Positions 11,349-28,933 are shown, counted from the first letter of the stretch. The stretch: DNA of 33,072 nucleotides from Thermoproteota archaeon (GCA_029258835.1 JAPDJY010000088.1:1-33072), one strand, 5' to 3'. The notes: generated by a model from the sequence alone, not told the origin. Made by a program: numbers and translations.

Positions 11349-11382
11349 AGGCTTTAATAAGACTAGAAAGTGAAGGCTTGGA

Positions 11383-11670: not shown

Positions 11671-11705
11671 ACTGCTTTCCTCTCTTTCTAATGGGAGATG
11701 GGTGT

Positions 11706-12746
11706 ATGGAGAAGTCTTCATTAAACACGAAGAGGAGGATGCTCGTTAAAAGTGAGGATGAGACGTCAAGGGAGTACGGGAAGTACCCCGATGAGAGGAG
11801 CGTTGAGGAACTTTTAGAGGGATCCTTTGTTAACATCGACAAACCGGCTGGGCCTACAAGCCACGAGGTCTCTTCTTGGGTGAGACGCATCCTTAACTGT
11901 AAGAAGACCGGGCATGCAGGCACACTAGAGCCCTTACTCACGTAAGGGCGGTGAAACCCTAAGGTTACCGGGGTTTTACCCGTAGCTATAGGATACGCCA
12001 CAAAGCTTATTCAAGCATTGCACCTTGCAAGTAAGGAATACGTGTGTGTAATGAGGATGCACGGGGACGTTGGCTTTGAACAGGTTAAAATGGTTTGCAA
12101 CGAGTTTACTGGCCCGGTCTATCAGAGACCTCCAGTTCGATCATCAGTCAAGAGACGGCTTAGGATTAGGAGAATACATAGCATAGAAGCTCTCGAAATG
12201 GACGGCCGAAACGTTTTGCTGAAGATACGCTGCGAGTCAGGAACTTACATTAGGAAGCTGTGCCATGACATAGGGGAAGTTTTGGGGTGCGGAGCACATA
12301 TGCGTGAGCTTAGAAGAATCGGGAGTGGACCATTCACGGAGGAAAATATTGTGACGTTGCATGATTTAAAGGATGCATATGTCTTCTGGATGGAAGAGGG
12401 GGATTTAACTATTAAGAAATTTTTATTGCCAGCCGAAATAGCCGTTCAACACCTACCTAAAATATTCGTTCGTGACTCGGCTGTTGACGCCATATGTCAT
12501 GGCGCTGACCTAGCAGTTCCTGGCGTGGTTAAATTGGAGGAGGGCATCGAGCCGGGGGGGATGGTGGCCATTCTTACCCTTAAAGGAGAGCTCGTCGCAT
12601 TGGGATCTGCTTTAATGTCGACGGAGCAAGTTATTAGAGAAAAGAAGGGGTTGGCCGTTAAGACCAAGAGAGTAATCATGGAGAAGGGGACGTACCCGCC
12701 TCTCTGGAAGAAAAAAGAGGATGCAAAGTCGGATTCTTCGCCTTAA
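11706..12746 (+). CDS. cbf5: H/ACA pseudouridine synthase Cbf5, two exons (11706-11928, 11956-12746); 337 aa after splicing
   Basis: [11 protein letters not shown] and GHAGTL^DPKVTGVLP restored by removing 27 nt; ESGTYIRKL and PUA domain downstream. Confidence 0.95.
11929..11955 (+). other. 27-nt BHB-type intron in the cbf5 catalytic Asp codon
   Basis: Central helix CACT/GGTG, bulges AG^A and AA^A, inner stem GCCCTTAC/GTAAGGGC. Splicing gives CTA GAC CCT (L-D-P). The intron contains an in-frame TAA. Confidence 0.93.
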
Positions 12747-12810
12747 AAGTGGATTTTCTCCTACGGGCATCTGCTCTTTACCTAACTTTTAAACCTGACC
12801 CCTCCGGGGC

Positions 12811-12823
12811 GAAAAGTATAAAA
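12811..12823 (+). promoter_or_regulatory. Putative BRE/TATA promoter for rpl44e-rps27e-aIF2alpha
   Basis: GAAAAG-TATAAAA about 75 nt upstream of the rpl44e start. Confidence 0.5.
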
Positions 12824-12895
12824 TTGGTTTCATTCTCTCCTTACTCAAGCTTGAACGAGATCGAGGTTCTTTAGAGGAAAAGTGGAGGGTTAACG

Positions 12896-13200
12896 GTGAA
12901 ATATCCTAAAATAAGGCGAACCTACTGTCCTAGGTGTAAGAGGCACACCGAGCATTCAGTGAGTGTTTACAAGAAAGGTAAGGATAGGGCTTTAGCGGAG
13001 GGCGCTAGAAGGTACGCGAGAAAGAAACGTGGCTACGGCAGCCAGCCCAATCTTCTCTACGCTGCGTAGAGGGGGGCAAACCGATCCAGAGAGTGTTTGC
13101 AAAAACTACGAAGAAAGTCAGTTTTAAGCTCAAATGTAAGGAGTGCGGCCATATTATTCATACTAAGGGTATCCGCCTTAGGAAGGTTGAAACTGTCTAA
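12896..13200 (+). CDS. rpl44e: 50S ribosomal protein L44e (eL42), two exons (12896-13050, 13080-13200); 91 aa; not in the ORF track
   Basis: [18 protein letters not shown]...GYGSQP^[13 protein letters not shown]...CKECG; GGAGG upstream of GTG; precedes S27e as expected. Confidence 0.95.
13051..13079 (+). other. 29-nt BHB-type intron in rpl44e
   Basis: Central helix GCCC/GGGC, bulges AA^T and AA^A, inner stem CTCTACG/CGTAGAG. Splicing gives CCC AAA CCG (P-K-P). The unspliced frame stops at TAG inside the intron. Confidence 0.9.
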
Positions 13201-13214
13201 AGGAGGGTGCTTGG

Positions 13215-13421
13215 TTGCGGAAGCAGCGTGAGATAATTCCACAGCCTAGAAGCGTGTTCCTGAAGGTTCAATGCCCAGACTGTGGTACGGAAACCATAAT
13301 CTTCGACAGGGCCAGCACTGTCGTTAAGTGCCACGTGTGTGGAGCGATGTTAGCTGAGCCAGGAGGAGGAAAGGCTCGTCTCCTAGTTAAAAAGAAGAAC
13401 ATCATCCAGGTTCTGAGTTGA
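13215..13421 (+). CDS. rps27e: 30S ribosomal protein S27e
   Basis: PRSVFLKVQCPDCG...CHVCG...PGGGKA. Confidence 0.96.
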   Translation: MRKQREIIPQPRSVFLKVQCPDCGTETIIFDRASTVVKCHVCGAMLAEPGGGKARLLVKKKNIIQVLS

Positions 13422-13466
13422 AGTTTTGAGAAGGAAAGTAGGAAAAGTAAGAGAGTGTGGGTGAAA

Positions 13467-14261
13467 ATGGTTAGGTTGCGGAAAGGATTTCCGAGCGAGG
13501 GGGACCTTGTGATAGCCACCGTTACGAGAGTTGCTAAGCATGGAGCCTATGTTTCCTTAGACGAGTACGAGGGGAAGGAGGGGCTAATCCACATTTCAGA
13601 GATTTCTCAAAGCTGGGTTCGGAACATAAGAAACTTTGTTAGAGAAGGGCAGAAGGTTGTTGCTAAGGTCCTTAGAACCGATCCTAGGAAAGGGTTTATA
13701 GATCTTTCACTTCGAAGGGTGACGGAATATCAGAGGAAGCAGAAAATACAGGAGTGGAAGAGGGCGCAGAAGGCTGATAACCTTCTTGAGCTGGCTGCAG
13801 GAAAGCTTAAGGCAACCATTGATGAAGTCTACGAGAAGGTAGGATGGCCTCTTGAAGACAAATATGGGGAGATATATGCTGGACTGGAGGAGGCTTCAGA
13901 GAGAGGGGAGCAAGCTCTTCTCGACGCAGGCGTTGACGAGAAATGGGCCGCTGTTGTAGCCGAGCTAGCCCGAGCATACGTTGAAATTCCAAGGGTTAGG
14001 ATAGGGGGGTTCCTCGAACTAACTTGCTGGAAGCCTAACGGAATAGACGCCATTAAGAAGATGTTAATCTCGGCCGAAAAGGCCGCAGGGAACGGTGACA
14101 TATCCGTTGAAATATACACGGTGGGGGCTCCCAGATATAAAGTCGAGGTAACGGCTAAGGATTATAAGCAAGCTGAAGCCGCGTTAAAGAAGGTGGTGGA
14201 TACTGCATTAGCGATAATTAAAAGCGAGCGCGGGCAAGGATCCTTCACACGTGAAAAGTAA
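13467..14261 (+). CDS. eif2a: Translation initiation factor 2 alpha subunit (aIF2alpha)
   Basis: S1 domain (GAYVSLDEY, IHISEIS, IDLSLRRV) and GAPRY motif. The start may be up to 4 codons earlier. Confidence 0.95.
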   Translation: MVRLRKGFPSEGDLVIATVTRVAKHGAYVSLDEYEGKEGLIHISEISQSWVRNIRNFVREGQKVVAKVLRTDPRKGFIDLSLRRVTEYQRKQKIQEWKRAQKADNLLELAAGKLKATIDEVYEKVGWPLEDKYGEIYAGLEEASERGEQALLDAGVDEKWAAVVAELARAYVEIPRVRIGGFLELTCWKPNGIDAIKKMLISAEKAAGNGDISVEIYTVGAPRYKVEVTAKDYKQAEAALKKVVDTALAIIKSERGQGSFTREK

Positions 14262-14279
14262 GGTAAGTTTAGACCTTCT

Positions 14280-14459
14280 TTACGTTGACTTTAACTCCAT
14301 TAGTTCTTTCTTCCGTTTCCTTCTCCACTCACCTAAGCGGTCTTCTATGGAGAATTTCGGCGGGTGGGGGATCCTAACCTCTCCTCCACAGTAGGGACAG
14401 GCATCCTGCCTTAGAGTGTACCGGCCACATGAAACACACTTTCTAAGTAGGAACCCCAT
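14280..14459 (-). CDS. nop10: H/ACA RNP protein Nop10 (59 aa; below the ORF-track cutoff)
   Basis: MGFLLRKCVSCGRYTLRQDACPYCGG...PHPPKFSIED read on the minus strand. Confidence 0.93.
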   Translation of the reverse strand: MGFLLRKCVSCGRYTLRQDACPYCGGEVRIPHPPKFSIEDRLGEWRRKRKKELMELKST

Positions 14460-14474
14460 TAGGGAGCACCCTTA

Positions 14475-17000
14475 TCAGCTTACTGTAACTTCCATTTCCC
14501 TCTCTAAATCAGGGATGGATGCCACTATCTTTAGGGGTACTTTATCGCCACTGTTAAGGGTTAACCCGCTTGCTTTGAAGGATAACTCCACGCTTTCACC
14601 CGGCTGAATAGTCACACCGGAGAAGTCGCATGCCGTACCATTAAGGTAGATTCCCGTAACGTTGAACGCGACTTTTCCATTGTTAACTATCCTTGCTACG
14701 CCGTTCCCTGACGCGTCGATGCTTACACTTTCAACGCTCATATTTGCGTCCAGAATTGAGTAATCTATTTCGAAGATCTTAACCAAGTGGTTGCTCGATA
14801 TGAAAACCGGCTTGAAGTGTTTTAAAACGCTGAAGCCGTGCTGCCAATTGGGGTACCATCCCGGAGGGTTTCCAACCTCATTGTACCCTATCACGAGGGG
14901 GTAACCGTTATCCTGCATGTAGCTGTAAAGACGGTACTCCAACGCGTTTTGAGACGGGTTTTCGGGGTTAGGGTCGTGATAGTAGAGAAGCTTGTAGAGG
15001 GTCATATTGAAGAAGCTTGGAAGGTATTTTACTCCGGTTGGCGTGGGAGCATAATACTCGTACTCCCATGGCGTGTAAAAAACGTTAAAGGAGATCTTCG
15101 CCATCCAGATCCATTTCCCCTCGTCTCCATGCAGGTTTGCGTCGTTATGCCCAAAGTACACGAGGACATGGGTGGCGTTGAACTGACGCAGGATCTCCAA
15201 GCTTTCCGTCTCATTGGTAGACGTTAACGCCCTTCCAACAAGCGCTATTTGAGTTGTGTTAAATGTTGCATTGTCAACCACGGTTGTCTTGTTGCCCCTG
15301 ACGGTAATCCAGTAGCCATAATCCCACCAAGATACTATAATAGCGTTTGGAGGCAGCTCGTTCTGCATGAATGCAAATGCCTCCTCCCAGTCAAGGTAAA
15401 AGTTCCCATAGCTGTCCCTTGGAGCCATCTGAGGCGAGCCGGAAAAGACCGTTGCCGTTACACCGTGATGGAAAGCAAAGAAAAGGAGAATTCCAGTTAT
15501 CGCAAAAACGGCAAAGGCAGATTCTTTACCCAAGATCTTCCTTACAATAGCTCTCCTTCTTTTAATGGCTATCTTCTCCTCGCCTAGGAGTACGCGTGAA
15601 AGCGGGTCATATATCATGGCGAGGGCGAAGCCCGACATGAGACACGCCACGGGGGCAAAAAGTAGTACGAGCCGAATCATGGACCCTGCGAAGTAGACAG
15701 TCGTCACGCCCAAGATTAACAGCATGAGATCTTCATCCCTTCTCCTTTGAAACGCAAAGTACATTCCAACAGGGAAAAGTATTACTGTAACGTGAAGGTC
15801 GTAGAAGAACATGCCCCACGCTGTGGAAGCATGCTCAGCGACGCTTGCTATGATTACCTCTTCCTCTCTGTAGAATGGATTGGCTACCGACAGATAGCGT
15901 CCGCTAATACTTAAAAACGAACTTAACTTGTAAGATAAAGCAAGGGAGAGAATAGGATTTGAATATAAAAGCAGCATTACACACGCTAGGAGGCTTACAG
16001 TGACCGCTGCTAGCGTGAGTGCGGCATTCCTCCTAGTTTTTATGAGATTGTGAATCTGCGGGTACTTAGCTATTTTTTCAGGGATGCTGCGGATTGCAGG
16101 TTTAACCCGCGGATACACTTCATAGAGCACAAGTATCAGTAACCCAATTATTGCGGGAAGTGCGCTTCCTGAAACTAGGTAGCCGGCATCGTATTCCGGG
16201 ACACGTGTGGCCACGAAGAGGCCCAGTGTTACGGTTATGCTATATCCTATTAGCAGGTTGCTCGAGTACCTCTTAAGTAGGATTAATAGGATGACTGCTA
16301 ACGGGAGAACGTACAGCATGTATATTGCAGCCCCCCAGCTGGCTATGAACCCTCCCAAGCTTAACCCAGCCATAACCGCTGAAAAAACCGATTTCCTCTT
16401 CAAGGATCTTATGAAGAAGAAAGTTGTCAATATGAAGAAGAATAGGCCTACACACTCGTTGTCAAAAAAGCCTGCGATGGTCCGTTCAATGAAGCCTGGG
16501 GTGAAGGAAAGCAGGAAGGAGGCTATTAGGCCTGCTTTCTCGTCTAAGACTTCACGTCCGAGGAAGAACATTGCGACGCAGGAGGCGGCGCCCATGACGG
16601 CTGGGAGGACGTAACAAACCATGTACACGTCGAGGTTAACGCCTAATGCTTTTAGTAAGAAGTATAATGTAGCGGCTGTGAAGGGGACTCCTGGAAGGTA
16701 GCTGCGTGATATATCTTGCCCATACGGGTACCACCTCATCCTGTCATACCATCCAAACCAGGCACCATACCCGTAAGTAGTTATAAACACGGTGTTATAG
16801 TACTGGATCCAGGGGTCATACGCTGCTATGTAGGGGGGATACAGGAAGAACGGGAAAAGCCTGATTAAGAAGGCAAGAAGTGCTATTAGTGCGACGCTTG
16901 CAGCTAGGACGAAGAGCTTTTTATCAACTTTGACCTTAACTACCCGGAGGATGTCGTCGAAAAGGCTTGCCAGAAAACTCCTGTTTGCCAACGGACTCAT
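14475..17000 (-). CDS. aglB: Oligosaccharyltransferase AglB/STT3 with a C-terminal Ig-like domain
   Basis: YDPW, GFFDNE, SVAEH, WWDYG and DEGK (DK) motifs; many TM helices. Confidence 0.96.
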   Translation of the reverse strand: MSPLANRSFLASLFDDILRVVKVKVDKKLFVLAASVALIALLAFLIRLFPFFLYPPYIAAYDPWIQYYNTVFITTYGYGAWFGWYDRMRWYPYGQDISRSYLPGVPFTAATLYFLLKALGVNLDVYMVCYVLPAVMGAASCVAMFFLGREVLDEKAGLIASFLLSFTPGFIERTIAGFFDNECVGLFFFILTTFFFIRSLKRKSVFSAVMAGLSLGGFIASWGAAIYMLYVLPLAVILLILLKRYSSNLLIGYSITVTLGLFVATRVPEYDAGYLVSGSALPAIIGLLILVLYEVYPRVKPAIRSIPEKIAKYPQIHNLIKTRRNAALTLAAVTVSLLACVMLLLYSNPILSLALSYKLSSFLSISGRYLSVANPFYREEEVIIASVAEHASTAWGMFFYDLHVTVILFPVGMYFAFQRRRDEDLMLLILGVTTVYFAGSMIRLVLLFAPVACLMSGFALAMIYDPLSRVLLGEEKIAIKRRRAIVRKILGKESAFAVFAITGILLFFAFHHGVTATVFSGSPQMAPRDSYGNFYLDWEEAFAFMQNELPPNAIIVSWWDYGYWITVRGNKTTVVDNATFNTTQIALVGRALTSTNETESLEILRQFNATHVLVYFGHNDANLHGDEGKWIWMAKISFNVFYTPWEYEYYAPTPTGVKYLPSFFNMTLYKLLYYHDPNPENPSQNALEYRLYSYMQDNGYPLVIGYNEVGNPPGWYPNWQHGFSVLKHFKPVFISSNHLVKIFEIDYSILDANMSVESVSIDASGNGVARIVNNGKVAFNVTGIYLNGTACDFSGVTIQPGESVELSFKASGLTLNSGDKVPLKIVASIPDLEREMEVTVS

Positions 17001-17120
17001 CCCGTTTCTCCCTTTATTTAATTTTCCTCTTTACATCACCCCTCTTTTAAAGATATCTTTCCCTTACGGATCCTCCATGATAAGAAGTTTTTTGGTGGAA
17101 TGAGAGAGCTGTGGATGGAT

Positions 17121-17134
17121 AAGCTTTATAAAAA
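17121..17134 (+). promoter_or_regulatory. Putative TATA box for rps3ae
   Basis: AAGCTTTATAAAAA in the divergent aglB/rps3ae spacer. Confidence 0.45.
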
Positions 17135-17205
17135 GGGTGCGTGTAGTCCCTTTGTCAAAGATGATGTTAGTCAAGATGTTACAGTTGGATCCGGGGCGGT
17201 CGCTG

Positions 17206-17826
17206 ATGAGCCGTAAAGAGCGTGTGAAGGATACATGGAGCACTAAAAAGTGGTTTACCGTCCTAGCCCCACCCTACTTTGGTAACGTTGAGATCGGGTT
17301 GACTCCGGCGAACAGCCCAGAGAAGATCCTTGGTAGAGTGATGGAGACTACACTGTACGACATTACAGGAGACTTCTCGTTGATCCACGTGAAACTTTAC
17401 TTTAAAATAATAAACGTTTCAGGGGATGTTGCGCAGACAGAGTTTCACGGCCACGAATTTGCACGGGACTTCCTCAGGAGCCTTATAAGGCGGGGAAGCA
17501 GTAAAGTGGAAGGTATCTTCGACGTTGTAACCAGGGATGGACGGGGGTTACGCGTCTACCCTGTAGCGTTCACTGTAAACAGGATCAAGACCAGCCAAGA
17601 AAAAGCCATTAGGAAGGTAATGAAGGAAATAGTGGAAAACAAGGCGAAGCAGCTTGATTATGGCGACTTCGCCCAAGAGATGGTGCTGGGCAAGGTGGGC
17701 TCTGAAATTTATAACTTAGCTAGGAAAATAGCGCCCTTAAGGAAATGTGATGTTTGGAAGTCGAAGCCTATTAAGCTTCGCACACGGGTGGTGGAGGTAG
17801 GTCAGGAGGCTGTCCAACCAGCTTAA
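17206..17826 (+). CDS. rps3ae: 30S ribosomal protein S3Ae (eS1)
   Basis: KDTWSTKKWFTVLAP, GRVMETTLYDITGDF and RSLIRRGSSK motifs. Start placed at MSRKER. Confidence 0.96.
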   Translation: MSRKERVKDTWSTKKWFTVLAPPYFGNVEIGLTPANSPEKILGRVMETTLYDITGDFSLIHVKLYFKIINVSGDVAQTEFHGHEFARDFLRSLIRRGSSKVEGIFDVVTRDGRGLRVYPVAFTVNRIKTSQEKAIRKVMKEIVENKAKQLDYGDFAQEMVLGKVGSEIYNLARKIAPLRKCDVWKSKPIKLRTRVVEVGQEAVQPA

Positions 17827-17848
17827 TGATGCTTGCGGGGTGTCTACA

Positions 17849-17989
17849 TTGAGCTTGGAGAAGAAGTGTGTTAAGTGTGGTTCCCCCCAAGTTGAAGTTT
17901 TACTTAGGCAGCCGTTAACTTCAGGGGTTGAGTACACTTACAAGTGTTTAGTATGCCACCACACATGGAAGGAAAAAAGGAAGCGGTAA
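17849..17989 (+). CDS. 46-aa zinc-ribbon protein, TFS/RpoM C-terminal-like; not in the ORF track
   Basis: MSLEKKCVKCGSPQVEVLLRQPLTSGVEYTYKCLVCHHTWKEKRKR*; GGGGTG SD-like motif 6 nt before TTG. Confidence 0.7.
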   Translation: MSLEKKCVKCGSPQVEVLLRQPLTSGVEYTYKCLVCHHTWKEKRKR

Positions 17990-18011
17990 AAGAAGCGACA
18001 CACGTCTACCC

Positions 18012-18284
18012 TTACTTTTTAACGTTTCTCCGGGTTAACTCCGCGGTTTTCTCTGTGAGAGAGGCGCTTGCAAGGATGTCGTCGATCGTTGATAAGAAGG
18101 TGTTAAGGCCCTTTTCACATTCGACCATTATGATCAGCTTCTCTCCGACGTTTTTCATGCTTAACTTTAACCCTTTAGGAAGAGGCTTATTGTCTGGGAG
18201 CAGCGTTTTAAACATTACCTCTGCCATGTGGGCATCCTCAAATAGTATCTCGATCACCGCTTTAGATCTGCTATCTTCCGCCAC
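18012..18284 (-). CDS. pcc1: KEOPS subunit Pcc1-like protein
   Basis: ~90 aa with LLPDN and FLSTIDDIL motifs; occupies the usual S15-DHH-pcc1 position next to S3Ae. Confidence 0.8.
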   Translation of the reverse strand: MAEDSRSKAVIEILFEDAHMAEVMFKTLLPDNKPLPKGLKLSMKNVGEKLIIMVECEKGLNTFLSTIDDILASASLTEKTAELTRRNVKK

Positions 18285-19692
18285 AGCCGCCCATCCCCAG
18301 TTCTTCGTCGAGTAACATGAGAAACTCTTCTTCCTTACCAACAGGTATGTATGCTCCAGCAGCTAACTCATGGCCTCCAGCCGCCGTCTCAAGCTTCATC
18401 CTCTCCATAACCCTCCTCACCAATTCTCCTAAATCTACATTTTCCCCTCCTTTCCCCAGCCGAATGGAAGCTTTAATGCAGTCTTCCTCGTTAGAGTAGG
18501 CTAATCCAACGATAACTTTGCTTTGATACTTCTTAGAGGATGCGAGTATGGACGCAACTGTTCCAACCATCCTTACGTCGATGCGGCCAACTCCACTGAA
18601 CCAGTACAGGTTCTTCCGCTTCTTCATCCCCTCTCCTTCAACCCAGTTGATGTAGTCTGCTAGCTTCACCCGGTACTCGTCAACGGCCTCCGCTGCCTCG
18701 GAAAGGGACCTCTTCCTTTCCCCCATACATATGGCTAATCCCAGCCCGGTCCTCCCGGTACGTCCACAGGCGTTAAGGAGCGACGCGTACTCTCTTGCAT
18801 CCCTCATGGGGGTTCCCTCTCTCTCCCTGCTTAAGACGTAAACAGTACCTATAATGCTCTGAGCTTCGTCAGCGCTCATGTTTCCCGGACCCAACATGTA
18901 CTTTACAAGCTCGGAGACCAGCCTAGCTTTCTCTTCACGTGAAAGCTCGGCTATTGTCCTCCAGCGATCACCCGCCTTCAATGGTATCTGCACTCTCTCC
19001 ACGAGAAACTTTAAGCATGCACCGTGGTTCCCGGATAAACCGGGTATGAATGGGTCTGTCGTGTATTCAAGAGCAACTGGTATGGGACGTGTCTCACGTC
19101 CAAAAACTATCAGGTCTTTAACCTCCTGCAGAATGCCGTGCTCCACTCCTTCCCTAGCTATTTCGGCATTTAAGCCTGTTAGACTACGTTGCTTTCCTTT
19201 GTCTTGCCTGTCCCCGAGGGCTCCGACGATGGCCAACGGGGACAGGTCCCTGTTTTTAACGTCAATCTCTCTTGCCACCAGGTATGCTGCTCCGGCGCCG
19301 CTGACGTCGACACCTCCATCTAAGCCGAAAAGGTGAGGGTTAAAGTGAATGAGCCTTCCACCGCCCTCTTCGGGGGGGTGATGATCGATTACTACGGTGT
19401 CTTCTTGCAGGGATTCCTCCAGAAGCTTTAACTGTCCACTACCCATGTCGGTGAACACGAACACTCTCTCCCTTCTCGGGATACGCTCTAGGCTCTTCCT
19501 GCTTAGCTGCTGGATTATCCGGACGTGGAACCTTGCATTAAGCCGTGTAAGGGAGGTTGAAATGATGCTTGCCGCTGCGATGCCGTCAGCGTCCAGGTGA
19601 GAAACTACCTGAAAAAGAGCATTTTCCCGTGCTTTTTCACGCAGGTAACTCGCCACGTCTCTAGCTGCCTTAACGAGTTGAGGTGGAGGCAC
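18271..19692 (-). CDS. DHH-family RecJ/GAN-like phosphoesterase
   Basis: HLDADG, TDMGS, IDHH, GALGD, LLNACGR and GGHELAAG (DHHA1) motifs. Confidence 0.93.
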   Translation of the reverse strand: MPPPQLVKAARDVASYLREKARENALFQVVSHLDADGIAAASIISTSLTRLNARFHVRIIQQLSRKSLERIPRRERVFVFTDMGSGQLKLLEESLQEDTVVIDHHPPEEGGGRLIHFNPHLFGLDGGVDVSGAGAAYLVAREIDVKNRDLSPLAIVGALGDRQDKGKQRSLTGLNAEIAREGVEHGILQEVKDLIVFGRETRPIPVALEYTTDPFIPGLSGNHGACLKFLVERVQIPLKAGDRWRTIAELSREEKARLVSELVKYMLGPGNMSADEAQSIIGTVYVLSREREGTPMRDAREYASLLNACGRTGRTGLGLAICMGERKRSLSEAAEAVDEYRVKLADYINWVEGEGMKKRKNLYWFSGVGRIDVRMVGTVASILASSKKYQSKVIVGLAYSNEEDCIKASIRLGKGGENVDLGELVRRVMERMKLETAAGGHELAAGAYIPVGKEEEFLMLLDEELGMGGCGGR

Positions 19693-19712
19693 TTTCCCTT
19701 CAAACCCGCCTT

Positions 19713-20171
19713 TTACTGCCGTATGAGTATGGCTGCCTTCTCAGGGTCATACTTCCAGTCTGGTGGTAGAACTCCCTTCCGCTTGTAGTACTTTACCAGC
19801 CTGTGGATCTTTGACTCTATAAGTTGAAGACCCCTTCTTGAGTGGAGGTCCTTCTTGTGCTCTTCAAGATGACGTCTAACCCTCACAGCCCGCCTCATGA
19901 GGTTTATGAGGTCCTCTGGAAGGGAAGGGGCGAGTCCGTGCTCCTTCAAGATCTGGGTGATCTTTTTGCCTACTATCGGCTTAACAAGGGGGACACCATA
20001 CTGGTCCCTTAGGATAACTCCAATCATGGATGGCGGGTGGCCGCTTTTGGCAAGCTCTACTACTTTGTCTACAACCCACTCCGGCGTCTTATCAAACCAT
20101 TCAGGCGGCCTTTTCACCGGGGGTCTCTTCGACGATGACTTCCCTCTCTTCCTGGCGTATATCCTCGCCAT
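19713..20171 (-). CDS. rps15: 30S ribosomal protein S15 (uS15/S13e)
   Basis: [26 protein letters not shown] and [14 protein letters not shown] motifs. Confidence 0.97.
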
Positions 20172-20229
20172 GGCTGAACCCTTCAGAAGTCTTAGACCGT
20201 GAAAGCTGGAGGAACTATGGTTCGAAGAT

Positions 20230-20805: not shown

Positions 20806-21426
20806 CGTTCCGAGTACCTCCCTCGCCTCTCGATCTCCCACATTTTCTCTATTACAGCGTCTGCCCCGCTGAACGAGCTCCGGTAGCCTTGAAGTATGAT
20901 GCCGAAGGCCTCTTCAAAAACGTCATAGTGGGTGCTTTCCAGCGCCCTCTTCATCAGGTGAAGGTCTACACCGCGGTCCTCAACGCTTCGGGAGAAGTCG
21001 CCCAGTCCGAAGTCTATGAAGAAGATTTTTCCACGGCTGAGTATCATATTAAGTTGTCAGGTCCCCATGTATTACTCCCATCCTATGCAGCCTCCCTATC
21101 GACTTTCCCACCTCGTAAAGTCGTTTACGCAGCTCCTCACCCGGTAACCTGCCACTTTTAATAAGCTCTTTCAAGGTTCCACCTTCAACGTAGTCCATTA
21201 CGATGGTTGCGTTATCTACGTCTACCAGGTAAACAGTTGGCGCCGGTACTCCAGCCCTCTTGGCGGCGTGGAGCAGACGAGCCTCACGCACCGTCCTCTG
21301 CCGCCTTAAAAGAAGGTCCAACTCTGTAACCCTATAATTTTTGGTGACTCTCACCTTGACGAGAACCTTCCTGCCGAAGAGGTCTTCTAGGAAAAGGTGA
21401 GCCTCCGCGCCCTTCCTGAAAAGCAA
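20802..21426 (-). CDS. bud32: KEOPS kinase Bud32, frameshifted at ~21051 in this sequence
   Basis: KGAEA, VKVR and HGDLTT in one frame; NMIL, IDFGL, VDLHL and RGRY in another. The junction ACT T AAT lacks 2 nt of the expected Ser codon. Confidence 0.88.
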
Positions 21427-22472
21427 TTATGACTCCTCCATCCAGGGGACGGTCACCTCGTCAAGCCTCCATCTAGGCTTAACCCGGCTTTCCTCCACTC
21501 TTATTATTCTCCCGCTGGCGTACTCCAGTATTCCTGTCCATGCAATCATTGCCCCATTGTCGCCTGCCAGGGAGGGGGGGACCACATGGAACTCTGCGTC
21601 GTGCTCCTTGGAAATGTATTCGATCATTTCCTGTAGACGCTTGTTCCTAGCCACGCCACCCGTTAGTAAGACCTCTCTTTTACCGGTGTGAGCCAGCGCC
21701 CTCTCCGTCACCTCTGCAAGCATGGAAAAGCATACTTCCTGAACGCTGTAACATAGATCCTCGATCCTGCAGTGTCCTATCTTTCCTATGGCAGCCGTGT
21801 ACAAACCCGAGTACGAGAGGTCCATGCCCTTGACAACATATGGAAGTTGAATAAACAACTTTCCTTTGCCTGCAAGCTCCTCTACCTTTGGCCCTCCAGG
21901 GTGTTTCAAACCGAGAGCCCTAGCAAACATGTCGAGCATGTTCCCCACGGCTATGTCTAATGTTTCGCCGAAAACCCTGTACCTTCCCTTCTCGTAGGCT
22001 GCGACCAGCGTATTCCCCCCGGAAACGTACAGAGTTAAAGGGTCTCTTACGTCCTCGGCGAGGCGGCCTATTTCTATGTGTGCCAGGCAGTGGTTTACGC
22101 CTACTAGGGGTACTTCAAGCAGTAGCGATAATGCCCTGGCAATGGTTGCAACGGTTCTTAAGCAAGGGCCTTTAGGGGGTTCTCTAGCCCCGGCCCCTGC
22201 GAGAAGGCAACAAGGTTGATGTCCTCCATGTTAACTCCTGCATCCTTTAGAGCTGATAGGATTACTTGCTTAGCGCTGTTCGAATGGTGCTGGGCGGCCT
22301 CCCTGGGATGTATCCCTCCTTCGGCCGGAACGTACTCATCCCTAACGTTGGCGAGCACTTCGCCTTCACCGTCCACGATCCCTACGCCTAGGGTGTGCGC
22401 TGTCCCTTCAATCCCGATGCATAGTATTCGGCGGCCACCCAGATTCCTCTTCACCAGCGAGGGGAGGGGCAT
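21427..22472 (-). CDS. kae1: t6A synthase Kae1/TsaD, two exons (22472-22186, 22171-21427); 343 aa after splicing
   Basis: GIEGTAH, GGIHP, SQGPGL^GPCLR, VNHCLAHIE, YVSGGNT and DNGAMIA motifs. The frame is restored by removing 14 nt. Confidence 0.95.
22172..22185 (-). other. 14-nt canonical BHB intron in kae1
   Basis: Outer helix CAGGGGCC/GGCCCTTG, central helix GGGG/CCCT, bulges CT^A and AA^A. Splicing gives GGG CTA GGC CCT (G-L-G-P). Confidence 0.9.
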
Positions 22473-22476
22473 TCCG

Positions 22477-22665
22477 TTACGCCTCTTTCTCCTCTGAGCC
22501 ACCTTCCTTCTTTTTCTCTCTCACATAGTCTGTGTAGCCGCACTTGCCACACGTGTAACGGCGCCAGTGCTCAGCCATGAAAACGCCGGGGCCGCACCTA
22601 GGGCAAAACCTTTTAACACGGACAAGCTTCCCATCAACAATCTTATAATATTTGCTAACGCTCAC
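22477..22665 (-). CDS. rps27ae: 30S ribosomal protein S27ae (eS31)
   Basis: [13 protein letters not shown]...CGKCGYT; GGAGG before GTG. Confidence 0.95.
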
Positions 22666-22709
22666 CCGACCGCCTCCGCCACCTATTTTCAAGGTCGGCT
22701 AGCGTGTTA

Positions 22710-23012
22710 CTACGCTGCCTCCTCACTTTCCTTCACCTCATTTCTCTTAATAATGTATTCTGGCTCCACCTGATAAGCTATTTCCTTTGAATCGTAGATC
22801 ATCGCCGTCCCCTTCGACCGGCCTAAACCGTACTCCGTCACGATCTTCCTAACGTAGACGTTTTCTAGGGGGACGCTTAGAAGGGCGGCTATCTTCCTTC
22901 TCACTTCCATCCTGCTAGGCGTTCCTTCCCCCTGATGCAACACCATGAAGGCAACTTCTTCTCTCTGGAAGAACGGGTTTCTACGTTTAGAGACAACTTT
23001 CACTTCCATCAC
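22710..23012 (-). CDS. rps24e: 30S ribosomal protein S24e
   Basis: NPFFQREE, GTPSR, TEYG and EPEYIIKRN motifs. Confidence 0.95.
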   Translation of the reverse strand: MMEVKVVSKRRNPFFQREEVAFMVLHQGEGTPSRMEVRRKIAALLSVPLENVYVRKIVTEYGLGRSKGTAMIYDSKEIAYQVEPEYIIKRNEVKESEEAA

Positions 23013-23559
23013 AGGCTTCCTCCATCATCTCCCTAACGATGCTGATCGCTCTCCTCCTAGCTTCATCGTTTACGTCCAAGACTACTAACCCCTGCTTCGG
23101 CTGGCCATAAATTATTATCGCCCCCTCAGGGGCGAGTATTATCGCCGGTATCGCCAGTAGGTCTTCTTCTCCATCAACAACCACGTAGACGCGGCCAGTC
23201 TTCGAGTAAGCCTCCCTGATCACCCTCCAAGCATCCTTACTTATCGTCCCGGGAGGATTCTTCAAGTTAAGCCTGACCCCGTCCGTTAAACTCCGGTTCA
23301 AACTAACGGTTCTAAGAGTTTTCCCGTCGACGATGCTAACGTCAAACTCTACGCCGACGTCAAGCAGTGTGTCCGTAGCGACGTCGCCCACCACCACCAC
23401 CTTGGCAGGCTTCCGCGTCGCGATAAGACCTTTAATTTTCAAGCTTGTTTCTGGGTGTTCACCCTCAACCAGCACTCCAAAAGGCTCCTTAAGGGAGTCT
23501 CTGAGGTGAAGCGGCAATTTCAAGTCGCAGTCAGGAATCATCCTTCTCCCCTTTTTCAC
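22987..23559 (-). CDS. DUF359 GTP-dependent dephospho-CoA kinase
   Basis: VGDVAT, DGKTLR, NPPGTI, DGEEDLL and YGQP motifs; conserved synteny. Confidence 0.9.
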   Translation of the reverse strand: MKKGRRMIPDCDLKLPLHLRDSLKEPFGVLVEGEHPETSLKIKGLIATRKPAKVVVVGDVATDTLLDVGVEFDVSIVDGKTLRTVSLNRSLTDGVRLNLKNPPGTISKDAWRVIREAYSKTGRVYVVVDGEEDLLAIPAIILAPEGAIIIYGQPKQGLVVLDVNDEARRRAISIVREMMEEACDGSESCL

Positions 23560-23741
23560 CTCACTTTCAACGCGTACTTACCCTTCTTTTTAATGTCCAG
23601 CCTTCTAGCTATCTGCGAGCCCTCCGGGTCAAATACGATCAGCAACCCCCCGTAGTCGTCGGACAGGGAGTACGACTTACATTCAGGGCACATTTGCCCT
23701 CTCACGAGAAGCTTACATGTGCGGCAAGCCCTTTCCCTCAA
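23556..23741 (-). CDS. spt4: Transcription elongation factor Spt4 (RpoE'')
   Basis: ACRTCK...CPEC...DPEGSQIA...GKYALKVR. Confidence 0.95.
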   Translation of the reverse strand: MRERACRTCKLLVRGQMCPECKSYSLSDDYGGLLIVFDPEGSQIARRLDIKKKGKYALKVR

Positions 23742-23750
23742 CCTTCCACC

Positions 23751-24338
23751 TCAAGAGGAGTGCTTCTCTTCTCCTGCCTCCTGCTTCCCGTATATTCGCT
23801 CCAGTTCCTCCTTTATCCATTCGATCTTCCCGAGGAACGGCTGCCTCATCGTTAAACCTATCCTCCCGCCTCTCGCCCCCCCGCTCATGGACACGGAGAC
23901 AACCCTCGCCCTCACCATGTCGCCCCGCATTATACGCCGCCCAGTCTCCTTCCCTATGAGGGCAGGGGTCTTACTGTCAAAGTCGATGAAGTCGTCCGTG
24001 AGCTGGGAAATGTGTATGAGGCCTTCGACCGGGCCAAGCCTTACGAAGACGCCAAAATCGACGACCTCCGTCACGGCGCCCTCTACGACCTCGTGCTGCT
24101 CCGGTTTAAAGGTGAGAACCCTGAACGTGGCTTGATGGAAGGCGCCTCCGTCTCCTGGGATCAGCCTTCCAACCCCCACGTCCTCCACGTCTATAACGCT
24201 GATAACTATCCCCAAGTCAGGGTCCATCACTTCCTCGTACTCTCTTCTAAGCATTTCAAGAGCTACTTCCTCAACTGGCTCCCCGAACCTGTCAGGGGGG
24301 ATCCTAAGCACGTCTCTAAGAGTTACGAGCTTGTACAT
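23751..24338 (-). CDS. rpoE: RNA polymerase subunit Rpo7 (RpoE')
   Basis: RIPPDRFG, GDGG, FGVFVRLGP and IGLTMRQPFLGK motifs. Confidence 0.96.
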   Translation of the reverse strand: MYKLVTLRDVLRIPPDRFGEPVEEVALEMLRREYEEVMDPDLGIVISVIDVEDVGVGRLIPGDGGAFHQATFRVLTFKPEQHEVVEGAVTEVVDFGVFVRLGPVEGLIHISQLTDDFIDFDSKTPALIGKETGRRIMRGDMVRARVVSVSMSGGARGGRIGLTMRQPFLGKIEWIKEELERIYGKQEAGEEKHSS

Positions 24339-24504
24339 TTCCCATTCACCTCAACAAAACCCCAAGGTAAACGGGGCCTCGTTAAACGAGGGAGCAACAC
24401 TTGGGAACCCCTATGAAAGCCAAAAGGTAGAAGGTGCTGATGGAGGCTACGGTAACCCTAAGCGCCACTATAACTGGCTTGCTTCACCTGTAAGCGACAT
24501 CCCC

Positions 24505-24906
24505 TTATAAAACTTCCCCGTCAAGTGCCAGGTGGTCCTCCTGCCTGAGGAAGACCACGGCGACGCCGGCCTCCCTAAGCTTCCTCCGAAGCTCCCTGTC
24601 ATTGGTGGCTACGACGCACCTTTCAACCTTTTTGGCATAGTTCAAAATTGATTCGTCCACCCCCCCACAGCTGAAGGAGCAAAACTTCACGTTTGCACGA
24701 TCAACAAGTTCCAATGCTGACCTAGCCATCCTTCCAATCTTTCCTCCTCTTCTAGCAAGCTCCTTCAGCTCCCTTAACACGCAGTCTAAAACCACCACTT
24801 CGTACTTTGCAACGATAACCCTATCAAGCTCCGAAAAAAGGTCTAACCCGAGGGAGAAGGGGGCAAGCAGAAAGTTAGTGTCGACCAGAACCTTAACGAC
24901 GTTCAC
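24505..24906 (-). CDS. PIN-domain protein (Fcf1/Utp24-like)
   Basis: VDTNFL, VDESI and VATNDRELR motifs; lies between aIF2gamma and rpoE'. Confidence 0.9.
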
Positions 24907-26198
24907 TTCACAATTCCCCACCCAATGAGTCTCCATCTCCCCGAAACCATCCGGCTCACGGCAACCCTTTGCCCCTCCTCGGCGCAGACCGGCCGGCGCA
25001 GGTTGATCTCGACGACCCCGCCCCTAACCGAGGACACCACGCCTACAGTAACCGATGAGCCAACGTTCAGCATTAACGGCTCATTAACCTTTACATCTTC
25101 CACCTTAGAAAGCTCCACGCTGCCGACAACACGCTCCATTAAATGCAGCTCTAAACTTAAACCATCCCATACTGGGGGAAGGGTACCCGGCTTCCCGACC
25201 ACGCTCCCTATAAGTCCGTCAGCCTTTGTCAAGGAGGGGTCTAGCTTCGTTCCAACGCCAATCAACCCTCCGGGGACAGCTTCCTCGAGCTCCACGCCTC
25301 CACCAGCATGCAAGCTCACAACGTCAGTATAGATGGGCTCGTACCCTCCGCCAAGGCTAACACCAGGGCGAATCTCGATCTCGTCACCGACCCTAACCCT
25401 CCCCTGAACGATAGCTCCGCCAATAACGCCCCCAACCAAGTCCTCAGGCCTCGTACCAGGCTTATTAACGTCGAAAGACCTAGCCACGTACATCCTTAAG
25501 GGCTTACTAAGGTCTCTAGTGGGGGTGGGGATCACCTCCTCGATGCTTTGAACCAAAACGTCAAGGTTCACACCGAAGACGGCTGACACGGGGATGACCG
25601 GGGCGCCCTCGGCGAATGTCCCGCTAATAAACTCCCTGATCTGCCTGTAATGTTCGATTGCCGCCTCCCTAGAGACAAGCTCGATCTTGTTCTGCACGAC
25701 GACGATGTTCCTAACCCCGGTGATTTCCAGCGCGGCGAAGTGCTCCCTCGTCTGAGGCTGAGGGCAAGGCTCGTTCGCCGCGATAACCAAGACGGCGCCA
25801 TCCATCAGGGCGGCGCCACTAATCATGGTAGCCATGAGACGCTCGTGCCCTGGGCTGTCCACGAAGCTAACCTTCCTCAGGAAGACGGCGTCCTCGCCGC
25901 AATGCGGGCACTTGTACCCTCCAGCCATCGCCAACGTGAAGTAGCACTGAGGGGGAGGGCAGGAGGGACACTTCAAAACAACAGCGTCGGCGTAACCCAA
26001 CTTGATGGTGATGCCGCGCCGCTTCTCCTCACTATGACGGTCAGCCCAGACCCCTGTAAGCGCGTGCACAAGGGTGGTTTTCGGCGCCCCCCATCAGCAT
26101 GGATGGGCATTGCCGTGGTCGACGTGTCCTGCGGTGCCTATGTTTACGACGCTTTGCGACTTTGCAGCATCCTCAAATGCGCCAGCATTCCCCGTCAA
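24903..26198 (-). CDS. eif2g: Translation initiation factor 2 gamma subunit, two exons (26198-26110, 26079-24903); 421 aa after splicing
   Basis: [12 protein letters not shown]^[30 protein letters not shown] and WRLIGWG motifs; GGAGGT before TTG. Confidence 0.96.
26080..26109 (-). other. 30-nt BHB-type intron in the aIF2gamma P-loop Lys codon
   Basis: Central helix CGGC/GCCG, bulges AA^T and AA^A, inner stem GCCC..CCAT/ATGG..GGGC. Splicing gives GGC AAA ACC (G-K-T). In-frame TGA inside the intron. Confidence 0.92.
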
Positions 26199-26399
26199 AA
26201 ATAAACCTCCATCAGGTTTTAATAAGTGTGAAGTTACTTTTCCTTTCTCCAGCGGTCTTTTTAAAAGTTTCTTGCATCCAGCTAGCACCTTCCACCGTCA
26301 CCTGCTTCCACGGTTAAAAACCTGCCCTTAACAGTAGAGAAGCCTTGCTCAGGGCGGAGCGGCCAGGAGTCCACGGTGCGGCGCCCTTCAGCCCTCCCC

Positions 26400-27167
26400 T
26401 TAGGGGGGTCGGGCAGCATCGTTTAGCAGGGAGCCTATCTCCTCCTGTATCCTCCTCATCACATCCACACTTATTTGCCCCGGCGCAACAGGATCGTCTA
26501 GTGAGGCATACGTGAAGGGAGAGCCGAAAAGGGGGCAAAGGATCCTCGAAACAGCCCCCAGCCTGCCCATACAGAAGGACACGGTTCTCCCCCGACGCTT
26601 GGTTGAAGCCAGCTTTAAAAGGAGGAGGTTATCCGTGATCCTCCTCGCCAAGGTTACGATTTTAGCTACGTCGCATCCGAGGCTGAAGAGGATGTCAACC
26701 TTCCTAGCCAGGAAACTCCACGTCGGCGTAGCTTCAAAGTCGTGGTAGGACAGGATAAGGGTAACCCCAACCTCTTTACACAGTGAAACCAGCCTGCCGA
26801 GGAGGGCGGGGTCAGTTGACGCCTCCACATCCACGAAGTCCGGTCCAGAAAGAACACACTTCTCTATCAGCTTCACCCGTTCACCCTCGCTAAACGGGAA
26901 AACACCCCCCTCACCTCTACGCCGAACAGTCACGATGACCGGCACCCCAATGTCAGACAGCAGCCTCCCAACCCGAACCCTCCTCCTCTTAAGATAGTCT
27001 AAACGCAACTCCACCAGGTCCGCTCCAGCATCACACGCCCTACGCGCCTTCTCCAGCATACCCTCCTCACTGTCAGCCCTCACGGAGACGCAAACCCTAA
27101 ACAAGCCAGCACCAGCCAGAGAAACCCGCCCCTTACTCCTCAGCAACCTTCCGGGAGGCAACCTCAA
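26400..27167 (-). CDS. aroD: Type I 3-dehydroquinate dehydratase
   Basis: ELRLDYL, TVRRRGEGG, SYHDF, AKIV, SRI and APGQ motifs. The true start is probably downstream of the ORF-track start. Confidence 0.9.
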   Translation of the reverse strand: MRLPPGRLLRSKGRVSLAGAGLFRVCVSVRADSEEGMLEKARRACDAGADLVELRLDYLKRRRVRVGRLLSDIGVPVIVTVRRRGEGGVFPFSEGERVKLIEKCVLSGPDFVDVEASTDPALLGRLVSLCKEVGVTLILSYHDFEATPTWSFLARKVDILFSLGCDVAKIVTLARRITDNLLLLKLASTKRRGRTVSFCMGRLGAVSRILCPLFGSPFTYASLDDPVAPGQISVDVMRRIQEEIGSLLNDAARPP

Positions 27168-27342
27168 GAACAGCTAAAGCTTCACCCTCACCCTTACGGC
27201 CGGGAAGAACCCCCTCCTTGTAGAGTAAATCCCTGACAGCCACACGGACAGCCTCACTCCTACTCCTGTAAACACCAAGCTCGACAAGCATCCTCAAACC
27301 CTTAACGTACTCCTCAGGAACCCTAAACGACGTCGACTTCAT
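27133..27342 (-). CDS. Ribbon-helix-helix (CopG/MetJ-like) DNA-binding protein
   Basis: TSFRVP...LVELGVYRSRSEAVRVAVRDLL. Confidence 0.88.
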   Translation of the reverse strand: MKSTSFRVPEEYVKGLRMLVELGVYRSRSEAVRVAVRDLLYKEGVLPGRKGEGEALAVLEVASRKVAEE

Positions 27343-27591
27343 AAGCTAAATACGCTACAATAGACAATATAAACATGACCTTTCACAGAACACGTAAAAC
27401 ACGAACCCCACCAGCACGGCACTTACACACGTTCACGGCAGACACAACCATAGGGGAAAGCCTCCCAGAACAGGCAAAACACATCCAACACCAGCGGCAG
27501 CCAACACAAAAAGAAAAACACCAGAACAAACCTCAAAAAAGGAACAGGAGAGAACCCCGACAGCCCAGCTTTCACCGGGAAACACGAGCAC

Positions 27592-28933
27592 CTACGACCT
27601 CGCCTTAACCTCCCTAACCACTCCGACGGCAACCGTGTAATCGCTGTCACGCACCGCGAAGCGGCCAAGCTGAGGAATCTCCTTATAGGGCTCAATCACC
27701 ATCGGCCTCGTCGGCTCAAACTCCACCAGCGCCGCGTCACCACGCTTAATATAGTCCGGGTTCTCCTCTATCACCTGCCCCGTCCGCCTATCCAGCTTAG
27801 CCAGAAGCTTCGAAAACCTGCACGCCACCTGAGCCGTGTGAGCGTGAATCACCGGAGTATAGCCCGCCGCGATCGCCGTCGGATGCTGAATAACAATTAT
27901 CTGACCCACAAATCTCTCAGCCACAGTAGGCGGATTAGCCGGGTGGCCAGCCACATCGCCACGCCTAATATCCTTCTTAGAAACACCACGCACGTTAAAG
28001 CCAATGTTATCCCCCGGAACAGCCTCGTCAATCCGCTCATGATGCATCTCTATAGACTTAACCTCACCCTTAACGTTGGGCGGCTGGAAAACAACGGTAT
28101 CACCAGTCTTCAAGACACCAGTCTCAACCCTGCCAACAGGAACAGTCCCCACCCCAGTAATACTGTAAACATCCTGAACCGGAATCCTAAGCGGCTTATC
28201 AACCGGCTTAGGCGGCACCTTCAACATGTCCAAAGCCTCAATCAAAGTCGGCCCATCATACCAAGGCATATTACCGCTCTTCTCAAGCAAGTTATCACCG
28301 GTCCACGCAGAAACAGGAACAAACGGCACCTCGTCAACCTTGTAGCCAACCTGCTTAAGCAACGTCTCCACTTCCTTCCTGATCTCCTCATACCTCTCCT
28401 TACTCCAGTTCACACTCGCATCATCCATCTTATTAACAGCGACAATCATCTGACCAACACCCAGCGTAAACGCAAGATACGCATGCTCCCTCGTCTGACC
28501 ACCAGGACCAATCCCCGCCTCAAACTCACCCTTCCTAGCAGACACCACCAGCACCGCAGCATCAGCCTGCGACGTCCCAGTAATCATATTCTTAATAAAG
28601 TCCTTATGACCTGGAGCATCAATGATAGTGAAGTAATACTTATCTGTCTCAAACTTCCAGAATGAGATGTCGATGGTTAGACCGCGTTCTCTCTCCTCTT
28701 TGAGTTTATCCATAACCCAAGCGAACTTGAAGCTACCCTTTCCAAGCTTTTCTGCTTCCTCTTCATATTGCTTGATTGTCCGCTCATCAATCGCCTTAGT
28801 AAGGTAAAGCAAATGACCCATAAGAGTCGACTTCGGCATTCCCCGGGAAGACAGGTTACACCGCCCGGGGAATATTGCCGTGATCCACGTGCCCTATAAC
28901 CACCAAGTTCAAATGCGGCTTAGAAGCACTCAT
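27592..28933 (-). CDS. tuf: Elongation factor 1-alpha, two exons (28933-28875, 28831-27592); 432 aa after splicing
   Basis: [19 protein letters not shown]^[22 protein letters not shown] and LGRFAVRD motifs. Confidence 0.97.
28832..28874 (-). other. 43-nt BHB-type intron in the EF-1alpha P-loop Lys codon
   Basis: Central helix CGGC/GCCG, bulges AA^T and AA^G, perfect 10-bp inner stem ATTCCCCGGG/CCCGGGGAAT. Splicing gives GGC AAG TCG (G-K-S). In-frame TAA inside the intron. Confidence 0.93.

Follow-up and report, generated by a model that had tools for sequence, protein, structure and literature searches.

Probable tRNA-type introns, four of them with in-frame stop codons, in five genes of an archaeal information-processing cluster

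What breaks five essential genes of a single archaeal gene cluster, each within a conserved motif, and how could such genes give rise to protein? The question is raised by a stretch of DNA of 33,072 nucleotides (GCA_029258835.1 JAPDJY010000088.1:1-33072, referred to here, at its full length, as the window), which is filed under a Thermoproteota archaeon and is presumed to come from a host of the Asgard type. An information-processing gene cluster at 11.7-28.9 kb of the window contains five members, cbf5, eL42 (rpl44e), kae1, aIF2-gamma and EF-1alpha, that are each split into two open frames. We found that every one of these genes carries a single bulge-helix-bulge (BHB) intron of 14-43 nt. Taking the structural, comparative and RNA evidence together, we think it probable that the five interruptions are genuine tRNA-type introns that are constitutively spliced and that carry a selected fail-safe stop codon.

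Anatomy of the five split genes

A preliminary description made from the sequence alone had located the interruptions at the catalytic Asp of Cbf5, two P-loop lysines, the Lys after GSQP in eL42 and the GPGL motif of Kae1, and direct reading of the DNA places them at exactly these sites. Intron boundaries were set by the rule that exon 1 ends in four helix bases and two bulge bases, and that the intron ends in the four complementary bases and two bulge bases. The boundaries given below are the set consistent with a BHB; a shift of 1-3 nt leaves the product unchanged. Positions are those of the window, Pfam matches are given by profile position, ORF stands for open reading frame, and a caret marks the splice site within a codon or bulge.

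11691..11928, plus strand: cbf5 exon 1, with the DKCLD domain and the start of TruB_N, ending ...GHAGTL and the G of the Asp codon (from the ORF listing; Pfam DKCLD, profile 7-57/58)
11929..11955, plus strand: cbf5 intron, 27 nt, splitting the catalytic Asp codon G^AC; in-frame TAA
11956..12746, plus strand: cbf5 exon 2, the AC of the Asp codon and then PKVTGVLP... (Pfam TruB_N 17-149, TruB_C_2 and PUA)
12896..13050, plus strand: eL42 (rpl44e) exon 1, ending GYGSQP and the AA of the Lys codon (Pfam Ribosomal_L44, profile 1-36/76)
13051..13079, plus strand: eL42 intron, 29 nt, splitting the Lys codon after GSQP, AA^A; in-frame TAG, located in the stem
13080..13200, plus strand: eL42 exon 2, opening with the A of the Lys codon, stop TAA at 13198-13200 (Pfam Ribosomal_L44, profile 37-75/76)
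22186..22502, minus strand: kae1 exon 1, ending FSQGPG and the CT of the Leu codon (Pfam TsaD, profile 3-61/264)
22172..22185, minus strand: kae1 BHB-type micro-intron, 14 nt, splitting the Leu codon of GPGL, CT^A; no internal stop
21427..22171, minus strand: kae1 exon 2, the A of the Leu codon and then GPCLRTVAT... (Pfam TsaD, profile 64-264/264)
26110..26198, minus strand: aIF2-gamma exon 1, with a probable start TTG at 26198 behind GGAGG, ending GTAGHVDHG and the AA of the Lys codon
26080..26109, minus strand: aIF2-gamma intron, 30 nt, splitting the P-loop Lys codon AA^A; in-frame TGA
24903..26079, minus strand: aIF2-gamma exon 2, the A of the Lys codon and then TTLVHALTG... (Pfam GTP_EFTU, GTP_EFTU_D2 and eIF2_C)
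28875..28933, minus strand: EF-1alpha exon 1, ATG at 28933, ending with the AA of the Lys codon
28832..28874, minus strand: EF-1alpha intron, 43 nt, splitting the P-loop Lys codon AA^G; in-frame TAA
27592..28831, minus strand: EF-1alpha exon 2, the G of the Lys codon and then STLMGHLLY... (Pfam GTP_EFTU 17-183/188, and domains 2 and 3)

Removal of the introns yields a single stop-free merged frame in all five genes, and the Pfam profiles run on over the joins: Ribosomal_L44 passes from position 36 to 37 and TsaD from 61 to 64, and TruB_N and GTP_EFTU each resume at position 17. In the EF-1alpha of relatives, the peptide encoded by exon 1 continues directly into KST.... Left unspliced, the messages cannot give protein and encode only stubs of 19-105 residues, in agreement with the preliminary description, which had called every unspliced mRNA non-productive. 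The four in-frame stops that it had reported (TAA, TAG, TGA and TAA) are all present, including those in the two introns whose length is a multiple of 3 (27 and 30 nt), and the kae1 intron does shift the frame into a TAA, which is met after 9 codons.

In minimum-energy folds, all five introns form a 4-bp central helix with at most one G-U pair and a 3-nt 5' bulge, with the intron stem stacked. The cbf5 intron (helix CACT/GGTG, bulges AG^A and AA^A) has an 8-bp intron stem and a fold z of -2.48, and the EF-1alpha intron (helix CGGC/GCCG, bulges AA^T and AA^G) has a 10-bp intron stem and a z of -3.06. The helix is GCCC/GGGC in eL42 and CGGC/GCCG in aIF2-gamma, with bulges AA^T and AA^A in both genes. 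In kae1 the helix is GGGG/CCCT, the 5' bulge is fused with the loop and the exon-exon helix measures 9 bp (minimum free energy -24.2, z -2.59). This outer exon-exon helix, which closes the 3' bulge, is strong only in kae1 and is weak in EF-1alpha. The cbf5, eL42 and aIF2-gamma elements are relaxed BHB motifs, and kae1 has the bulge-helix-loop form.

Relaxed BHB motifs are the kind reportedly cut by the alpha-beta endonuclease with an extra loop, and the EndA of Asgard archaea has been reported to be of the alpha-beta type with a broad-specificity loop. The genome to which the window belongs (G000, a metagenome bin of 91 contigs with 6% contamination) has two PF01974 (EndA) genes, at C1:12233-12481 and C6:39796-40056, and one RtcB gene, at C1:78966-80273. 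By analogy with the report on Asgard archaea, its EndA genes may be of the alpha-beta broad-specificity type. Self-splicing group I or group II introns were excluded because the introns are 14-43 nt long, as opposed to a ribozyme core of some hundreds of bases. ARAGORN found no tRNA in the window.

RNA sequences were available from three metatranscriptome runs on one marine-sediment sample, which contain parts of the region (5-12% of sampled words). One RNA contig, of depth 2.5, joins 28831 to 28875 and omits exactly the 43 bases predicted as the EF-1alpha intron (28832-28874); by reconstruction, some 186 bases around the joint agree with the window. We take this contig as a first hint of splicing in vivo, and as nothing beyond a hint. 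No contig bridges the cbf5, eL42 or kae1 introns and none shows the aIF2-gamma exons joined; most of the 18 kb is uncovered, and the libraries have no bearing on the splicing of the first three.

Conservation of the introns in relatives

The cbf5 intron is found at G^AY of the catalytic Asp codon in 15 of 30 sampled genomes, representing four families, with lengths of 27-41 nt, and its codon position is identical to that of the published crenarchaeal cbf5 intron. The central helix covaries among these genomes (CACT/GGTG, CACT/AGTG and CTCT/AGAG), and the intron stems have diverged yet pair. The eL42 intron is present in 5/5 family members (this genome and G001-G004) at 29 or 30 nt, and the Lys-site intron of aIF2-gamma has homologues of 29-31 nt in G001-G003, in both cases with altered stems; the aIF2-gamma intron is absent outside the family. 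For kae1, a 14-nt counterpart was seen directly in G001, a complete relative. Judged by frame lengths only, kae1 appears to be interrupted at the same place throughout the family and the order, and also in another family, of small genomes, where the frame ends at the intron position (247-249 residues in G011, G022 and G032, compared with a 247-residue query). These lengths suggest that the kae1 intron extends far outside the order. No interruption of kae1 was found in 80 other archaeal loci.

Could the split genes instead be pseudogenes, assembly errors or programmed frameshifts? The genome is a contaminated bin in many contigs, and the bud32 gene beside kae1 has an apparent 2-nt deletion, both of which would allow for such an explanation. 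However, five single-copy essential genes would then all be dead. Moreover, the inserts fold as BHB motifs and covary in independent assemblies, and an RNA contig lacks exactly the EF-1alpha insert. We consider it very improbable that these are anything other than introns.

The EF-1alpha intron was not detected in any of the 28 relatives' loci that span the site, including those of three genomes of the same family, and is known only from G000. Because all of these loci are uninterrupted, the EF-1alpha intron is a recent gain. Its insertion site matches that of the aIF2-gamma intron to the nucleotide, and both have the helix CGGC/GCCG and the 5' bulge AA^T, raising the possibility that an intron, or reversed splicing, targeted the P-loop string GAYCACGGCAA that EF-1alpha has in common with aIF2-gamma. 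The distribution of the two introns, one family-wide and the other confined to this genome, speaks for such a directed spread, as does the gain by G001 and G002 of a second aIF2-gamma intron 15 nt upstream of the first. However, independent insertion at a favourable GGC-AAR site fits these data equally well, and the EF-1alpha and aIF2-gamma introns have no sequence in common beyond the 6 nt needed for pairing and bulge. Directed spread therefore strikes us as possible and rather doubtful.

The second aIF2-gamma intron is itself of the BHB type. It interrupts the His codon of GTAGHVDHG, measures 30 nt in G002 (L033) and 33 nt in G001 (L034) and carries an in-frame TGA in both, so that in these two genomes one aIF2-gamma P-loop holds two introns 15 nt apart.

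In bud32, which lies downstream of kae1, the catalytic loop is broken (window 21040-21060, minus strand): HGDLTT is followed by TAA, one extra base and, in a different frame, NMILSRGK.... In G001 the loop is intact (HGDLTTSNMIV). The break looks like an apparent 2-nt deletion in a Ser codon, whether through assembly error, pseudogene formation or recoding, and it is below intron size.

Introns across the genome, their stop codons and their sites

To place the five introns in context, the whole of G000 was scanned against G001 for a strict BHB whose removal extends an open frame, with in-register conservation in G001 and an identity of at least 50% within 10 residues of the join. True cases were hand-picked among 174 candidates, the criteria being a sensible protein, the length of the helix and an intron differing in length or sequence. 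The genome contains at least 13 BHB introns, five in the window and at least eight elsewhere. The eight outside the window interrupt ahcY, alba, queE, one PIMT-like, one leuC-like and one membrane-protein gene, and two radical-SAM genes, names that were taken from the junction peptides. Thus BHB introns are not restricted to translation genes; metabolic and chromatin genes are hosts as well, and therefore the system is not translation-specific.

The scan recovered four of the five window introns and missed that of eL42, whose merged frame is too short for the filter. Its hits amount to four within 17 kb versus eight in the other 2.7 Mb, which by Poisson arithmetic is a strong local excess. We treat this excess as real and its magnitude as uncertain, the census being incomplete and picked by eye. 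Introns in mRNA are rare: a motif-free split search with a 312-kb sample of a more distant genome, G036, returned one split among 273 ORFs with hits, the 196-nt insert in a P-type ATPase gene described below. A motif-free split search with the ORFs of G001 gave 21 candidates, mostly frameshifts, paralogues and larger inserts, and three clean BHB introns.

We examined stop codons in a sample of 42 introns, comprising the 13 of G000 and orthologues in relatives. A stop in the frame of exon 1 is present in 34 of the 42, versus 14 and 12 for the other two frames; in G000 alone the numbers are 11 of 13 versus 3 and 3. Among introns whose length is a multiple of 3, all nine have a stop in the exon-1 frame, compared with 1/9 and 3/9 in the others, and those of relatives were found by position, not by their stops. 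The G000 introns of other lengths are free of detection bias, and 8/10 of them carry a stop (binomial p ~0.002 at a rate of 0.3). Seven of the eight G000 introns outside the window have one, as do two further introns seen only in G001. In the 8 of 11 stop-bearing G000 introns for which the distance was tabulated, 3-6 codons separate the 5' splice site from the stop. From these counts we infer that the in-frame stops are probably a selected feature.

An alternative is that both the stops and the conserved sites reflect chance and the route of discovery, a broken motif or frame, and not biology. The census itself demanded identity close to the join, and an intron that lacks a stop and has a length divisible by 3 would pass as a short insertion and be missed by an ORF-based scan. 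In addition, the five window introns alone make a weak case, as shuffles give a stop probability of 0.10-0.36 for each and ~0.07 for the 27-nt and 30-nt introns jointly. On the other hand, the two remaining frames act as an internal control and fall far below the exon-1 frame, the excess persists among the introns free of detection bias, and the multiple-of-3 introns that were located by position in relatives have their stops without exception. Introns are also rare overall, and four of those in the window were caught by the same scan that found eight elsewhere. We regard ascertainment as an unlikely source of the pattern.

The claim that the introns sit in conserved motifs is borne out by the 9-residue windows around the joins, which rank at the 99th percentile of conservation within the protein for aIF2-gamma, the 89th for Kae1, the 83rd for Cbf5 and the 74th for EF-1alpha (p ~0.008 by Fisher combination of the four). 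The remaining introns include ones next to CxxxCxxC motifs, within GQTISAPH and within TKWEFDN and, in G001, at the RxCGxC nickel site of a hydrogenase-like gene.

The nucleotide context follows a pattern as well. In the 13 G000 introns the 3' bulge always starts with A, eight have AA in both bulges, and the exon strand of the central helix is GC-rich in most cases. Where a phase-2 intron has AA bulges, the codon that it splits has to be AAN, which makes Lys after Gly or Pro an ideal site. A preference for a GC-rich tetramer followed by an A-rich bulge could alone explain the three lysines. The earlier suggestion of introns persisting only at sites of lethal imprecise loss agrees with the conservation pattern and is not separated from such a target-sequence preference. 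Three factors would thus shape the siting, namely a preferred target, the longer life of conserved targets and the lethality of imprecise loss, and they are not separable here.

The preliminary description had also raised the possibility that splicing acts as an on/off gate that couples EndA/RtcB activity to translation capacity. Splicing would in that case be variable and rate-limiting, and the activity of the two enzymes would set the output of Cbf5, eL42, Kae1, aIF2-gamma and EF-1alpha, loosely as in HAC1/XBP1 splicing, of which RtcB is also the ligase. Such a gate would suit the location of 5 of the at least 13 confirmed introns in one 17-kb cluster of translation-related genes, the short stubs encoded by unspliced forms, and the co-occurrence of spliced with unspliced EF-1alpha contigs in the RNA from one sample. 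However, the same introns are found in ahcY, alba, queE, and the PIMT-like, radical-SAM and membrane-protein genes. There is also no conserved circuit, with the EF-1alpha intron absent at 28 relatives' loci and the aIF2-gamma intron absent outside the family. Furthermore, the unspliced contigs, of depth ~2 and from a single RNA sample, may be DNA, and the RNA contigs give no ratio of the two forms. The gate is unsupported by these results and we think it improbable; splicing is most likely constitutive.

Several search variants were rejected. A first scan for a strict BHB with ORF rescue was unspecific (35,920 hits; a decoy pairing rule gave 33,486), scoring by codon usage failed to separate its hits from decoys, and its early-stop requirement caused it to miss ahcY and a gene on contig C28. 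Comparison of junction peptides with G001 by tblastn produced alignments that overran stops and joins, and was uninformative until the two sides were scored separately. Requiring a BHB in both genomes swamped the results with rRNA, wrong-frame conserved DNA and neighbouring genes (e.g. hydrogenase small and large subunits). At the boundary between an rpoA''-like and an L30e-like gene (window 31877-31951, plus strand), BHB-like pairings are kept in G001, and these were judged to be chance between neighbours.

The searches also turned up other interruptions. On the minus strand of G001 C1 (oriented position 560912), a 59-nt BHB intron with an in-frame stop lies within RVCGICSNA^H of a hydrogenase-large-subunit-like gene and is absent in G000. 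A P-type ATPase gene of G000 (C40 ~1629-1826, minus strand) has a 196-nt insert relative to G001 and G036, with flanks in frame and no strict BHB, which may be a larger intron or another element. An insert of ~265 nt in G000 (C31 ~11318-11596, plus strand), again with no strict BHB, splits a gene that is continuous in G001 and has 4Fe-4S-type motifs upstream. Long arrays with a period of ~74 nt at C2 ~156-163 kb and C16 ~51-58 kb of G000, with similar ones at contig ends of G001, yielded many false split-gene signals and are very probably CRISPR arrays.

A proposed mechanism and its relation to known systems

We propose that the five introns belong to a population of micro-introns, at least 13 in number, spread over the genome. 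The splicing endonuclease would cut both 3-nt bulges that flank the 4-bp helix formed between the end of exon 1 and the 3' end of the intron, and RtcB would then ligate the exons. As there is no nucleus, ribosomes would trail the polymerase onto unspliced RNA, and a stop placed 3-6 codons into the intron may free them there. Release at this point would avoid both a full-length protein with a wrecked active site and run-through over the 3' splice site. With regard to siting, the exon would have to offer a GC-rich tetramer and then an A-rich bulge, which would favour Gly, Pro or Ala codons followed by Lys. Conserved nucleotide strings may remain usable targets across paralogues and lineages, possible examples being the cbf5 codon position held in common with Crenarchaeota and CGGC AA^ in aIF2-gamma and EF-1alpha, and imprecise intron loss at conserved sites would be lethal.

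A number of observations weigh against this reading. RNA support is thin, consisting of a single spliced contig whose 9 mismatches are clustered near one end, such that an intron-less strain variant is possible, and the unspliced EF-1alpha and aIF2-gamma contigs in the same libraries may be either pre-mRNA or carried-over DNA. The 42 introns of the stop sample are non-independent, many being orthologues, and an intron without a stop and of a length divisible by 3 would have escaped notice. Some stops are fixed by pairing, as in cbf5, where GTGAA^ gives an in-frame TGA at any multiple-of-3 length, and two of the 13 G000 introns (those of kae1 and of the radical-SAM gene on C19) contain no internal stop. 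The census is incomplete, since it demanded a strict BHB and conservation in one relative and its cases were picked by eye. Finally, the EF-1alpha join window reaches only the 74th percentile of conservation, and the sequence that its intron shares with that of aIF2-gamma is confined to the bases obliged to pair or bulge.

More broadly, and as a tentative proposal that may well prove wrong, the tRNA-type introns of intron-rich Asgard archaea, the presumed host lineage, could be a population that colonises coding sequences at conserved sites of a GC-rich tetramer plus AA, recurs at paralogous P-loops (first in aIF2-gamma, later in EF-1alpha) and is selected for an in-frame stop by which ribosomes are kept away from unspliced RNA. 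In eukaryotes, it is often argued, the nucleus resolved the clash between splicing and translation. If our proposal is true, these introns would represent an answer based on protein enzymes to the conflict between splicing and coupled translation. The frame-specific stop excess would provide a testable rule for how a cell with no nucleus copes with introns in promptly translated messages, and the gain in EF-1alpha at the older aIF2-gamma site would offer a handle on how introns arise. The main elongation factor would depend on tRNA-splicing enzymes, and so would an initiation factor, a ribosomal protein and a universal tRNA-modification enzyme; gene callers are expected to mis-annotate all of these genes.

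The closest precedent is the crenarchaeal cbf5 pre-mRNA intron, which was reportedly also described by Watanabe in 2002 and by Yoshinari in 2006. It measures 16-44 bp, shows patchy gain and loss and is associated with a hetero-oligomeric endonuclease (Yokobori 2009, PMC2738675). According to the same 2009 survey, pre-mRNA splicing was confirmed for no archaeal protein gene besides cbf5 (PMC2738675), and in the library that we searched we found no later reports of archaeal pre-mRNA introns beyond cbf5. The introns described here resemble it in type, in their similar size, in patchy gain and loss, in the codon position of the cbf5 intron itself and, probably, in having a hetero-oligomeric endonuclease. 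They differ in the presumed Asgard-type host and in that four further essential genes (eL42, kae1, aIF2-gamma and EF-1alpha) are split. New here are the stop excess, the site statistics, the cbf5 site in common with Crenarchaeota, the EF-1alpha gain at the aIF2-gamma site and the spliced RNA contig.

In Freyarchaeia/Jordarchaeia and Atabeyarchaeia, introns interrupt 92-95% of tRNA genes, frequently with more than one per gene and in unusual places (10.1101/2023.11.21.568159; 10.64898/2026.10.13.758758). The splicing motif is the same and the enzymes are presumably the same. However, those papers deal with tRNA genes only, with no mention found in them of introns in coding sequences, whereas the introns here are in mRNA. 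Group I introns of bacterial and phage protein genes offer a parallel to the stops, as an in-frame stop just past the 5' junction bars ribosomes from the structured intron (PMC3073962). They likewise reside in essential genes. In contrast to the introns found here, which are 14-55 nt long and would be cut and joined by proteins, group I introns span hundreds of bases, splice themselves as ribozymes and often come with a homing endonuclease.

HAC1/XBP1 splicing shares with the present system a non-spliceosomal cleavage of mRNA at a small stem-loop, an unspliced form that gives no active protein and, in animals, ligation by RtcB. Its own features are the stress-activated IRE1, twin 7-nt loops, one dedicated regulatory target and a purposely changed frame after the intron; the folds of the five introns contain a single BHB each and no twin 7-nt-loop stem-loops of this kind. 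Lastly, inteins and homing introns lodge in P-loops, catalytic residues and metal-binding motifs, for which the usual explanation is a conserved target together with lethal imprecise loss. The introns of this cluster are similarly lodged in conserved motifs of essential genes, but whereas inteins are removed at the protein level and are often mobilised by an endonuclease that they encode, the introns described here encode nothing.

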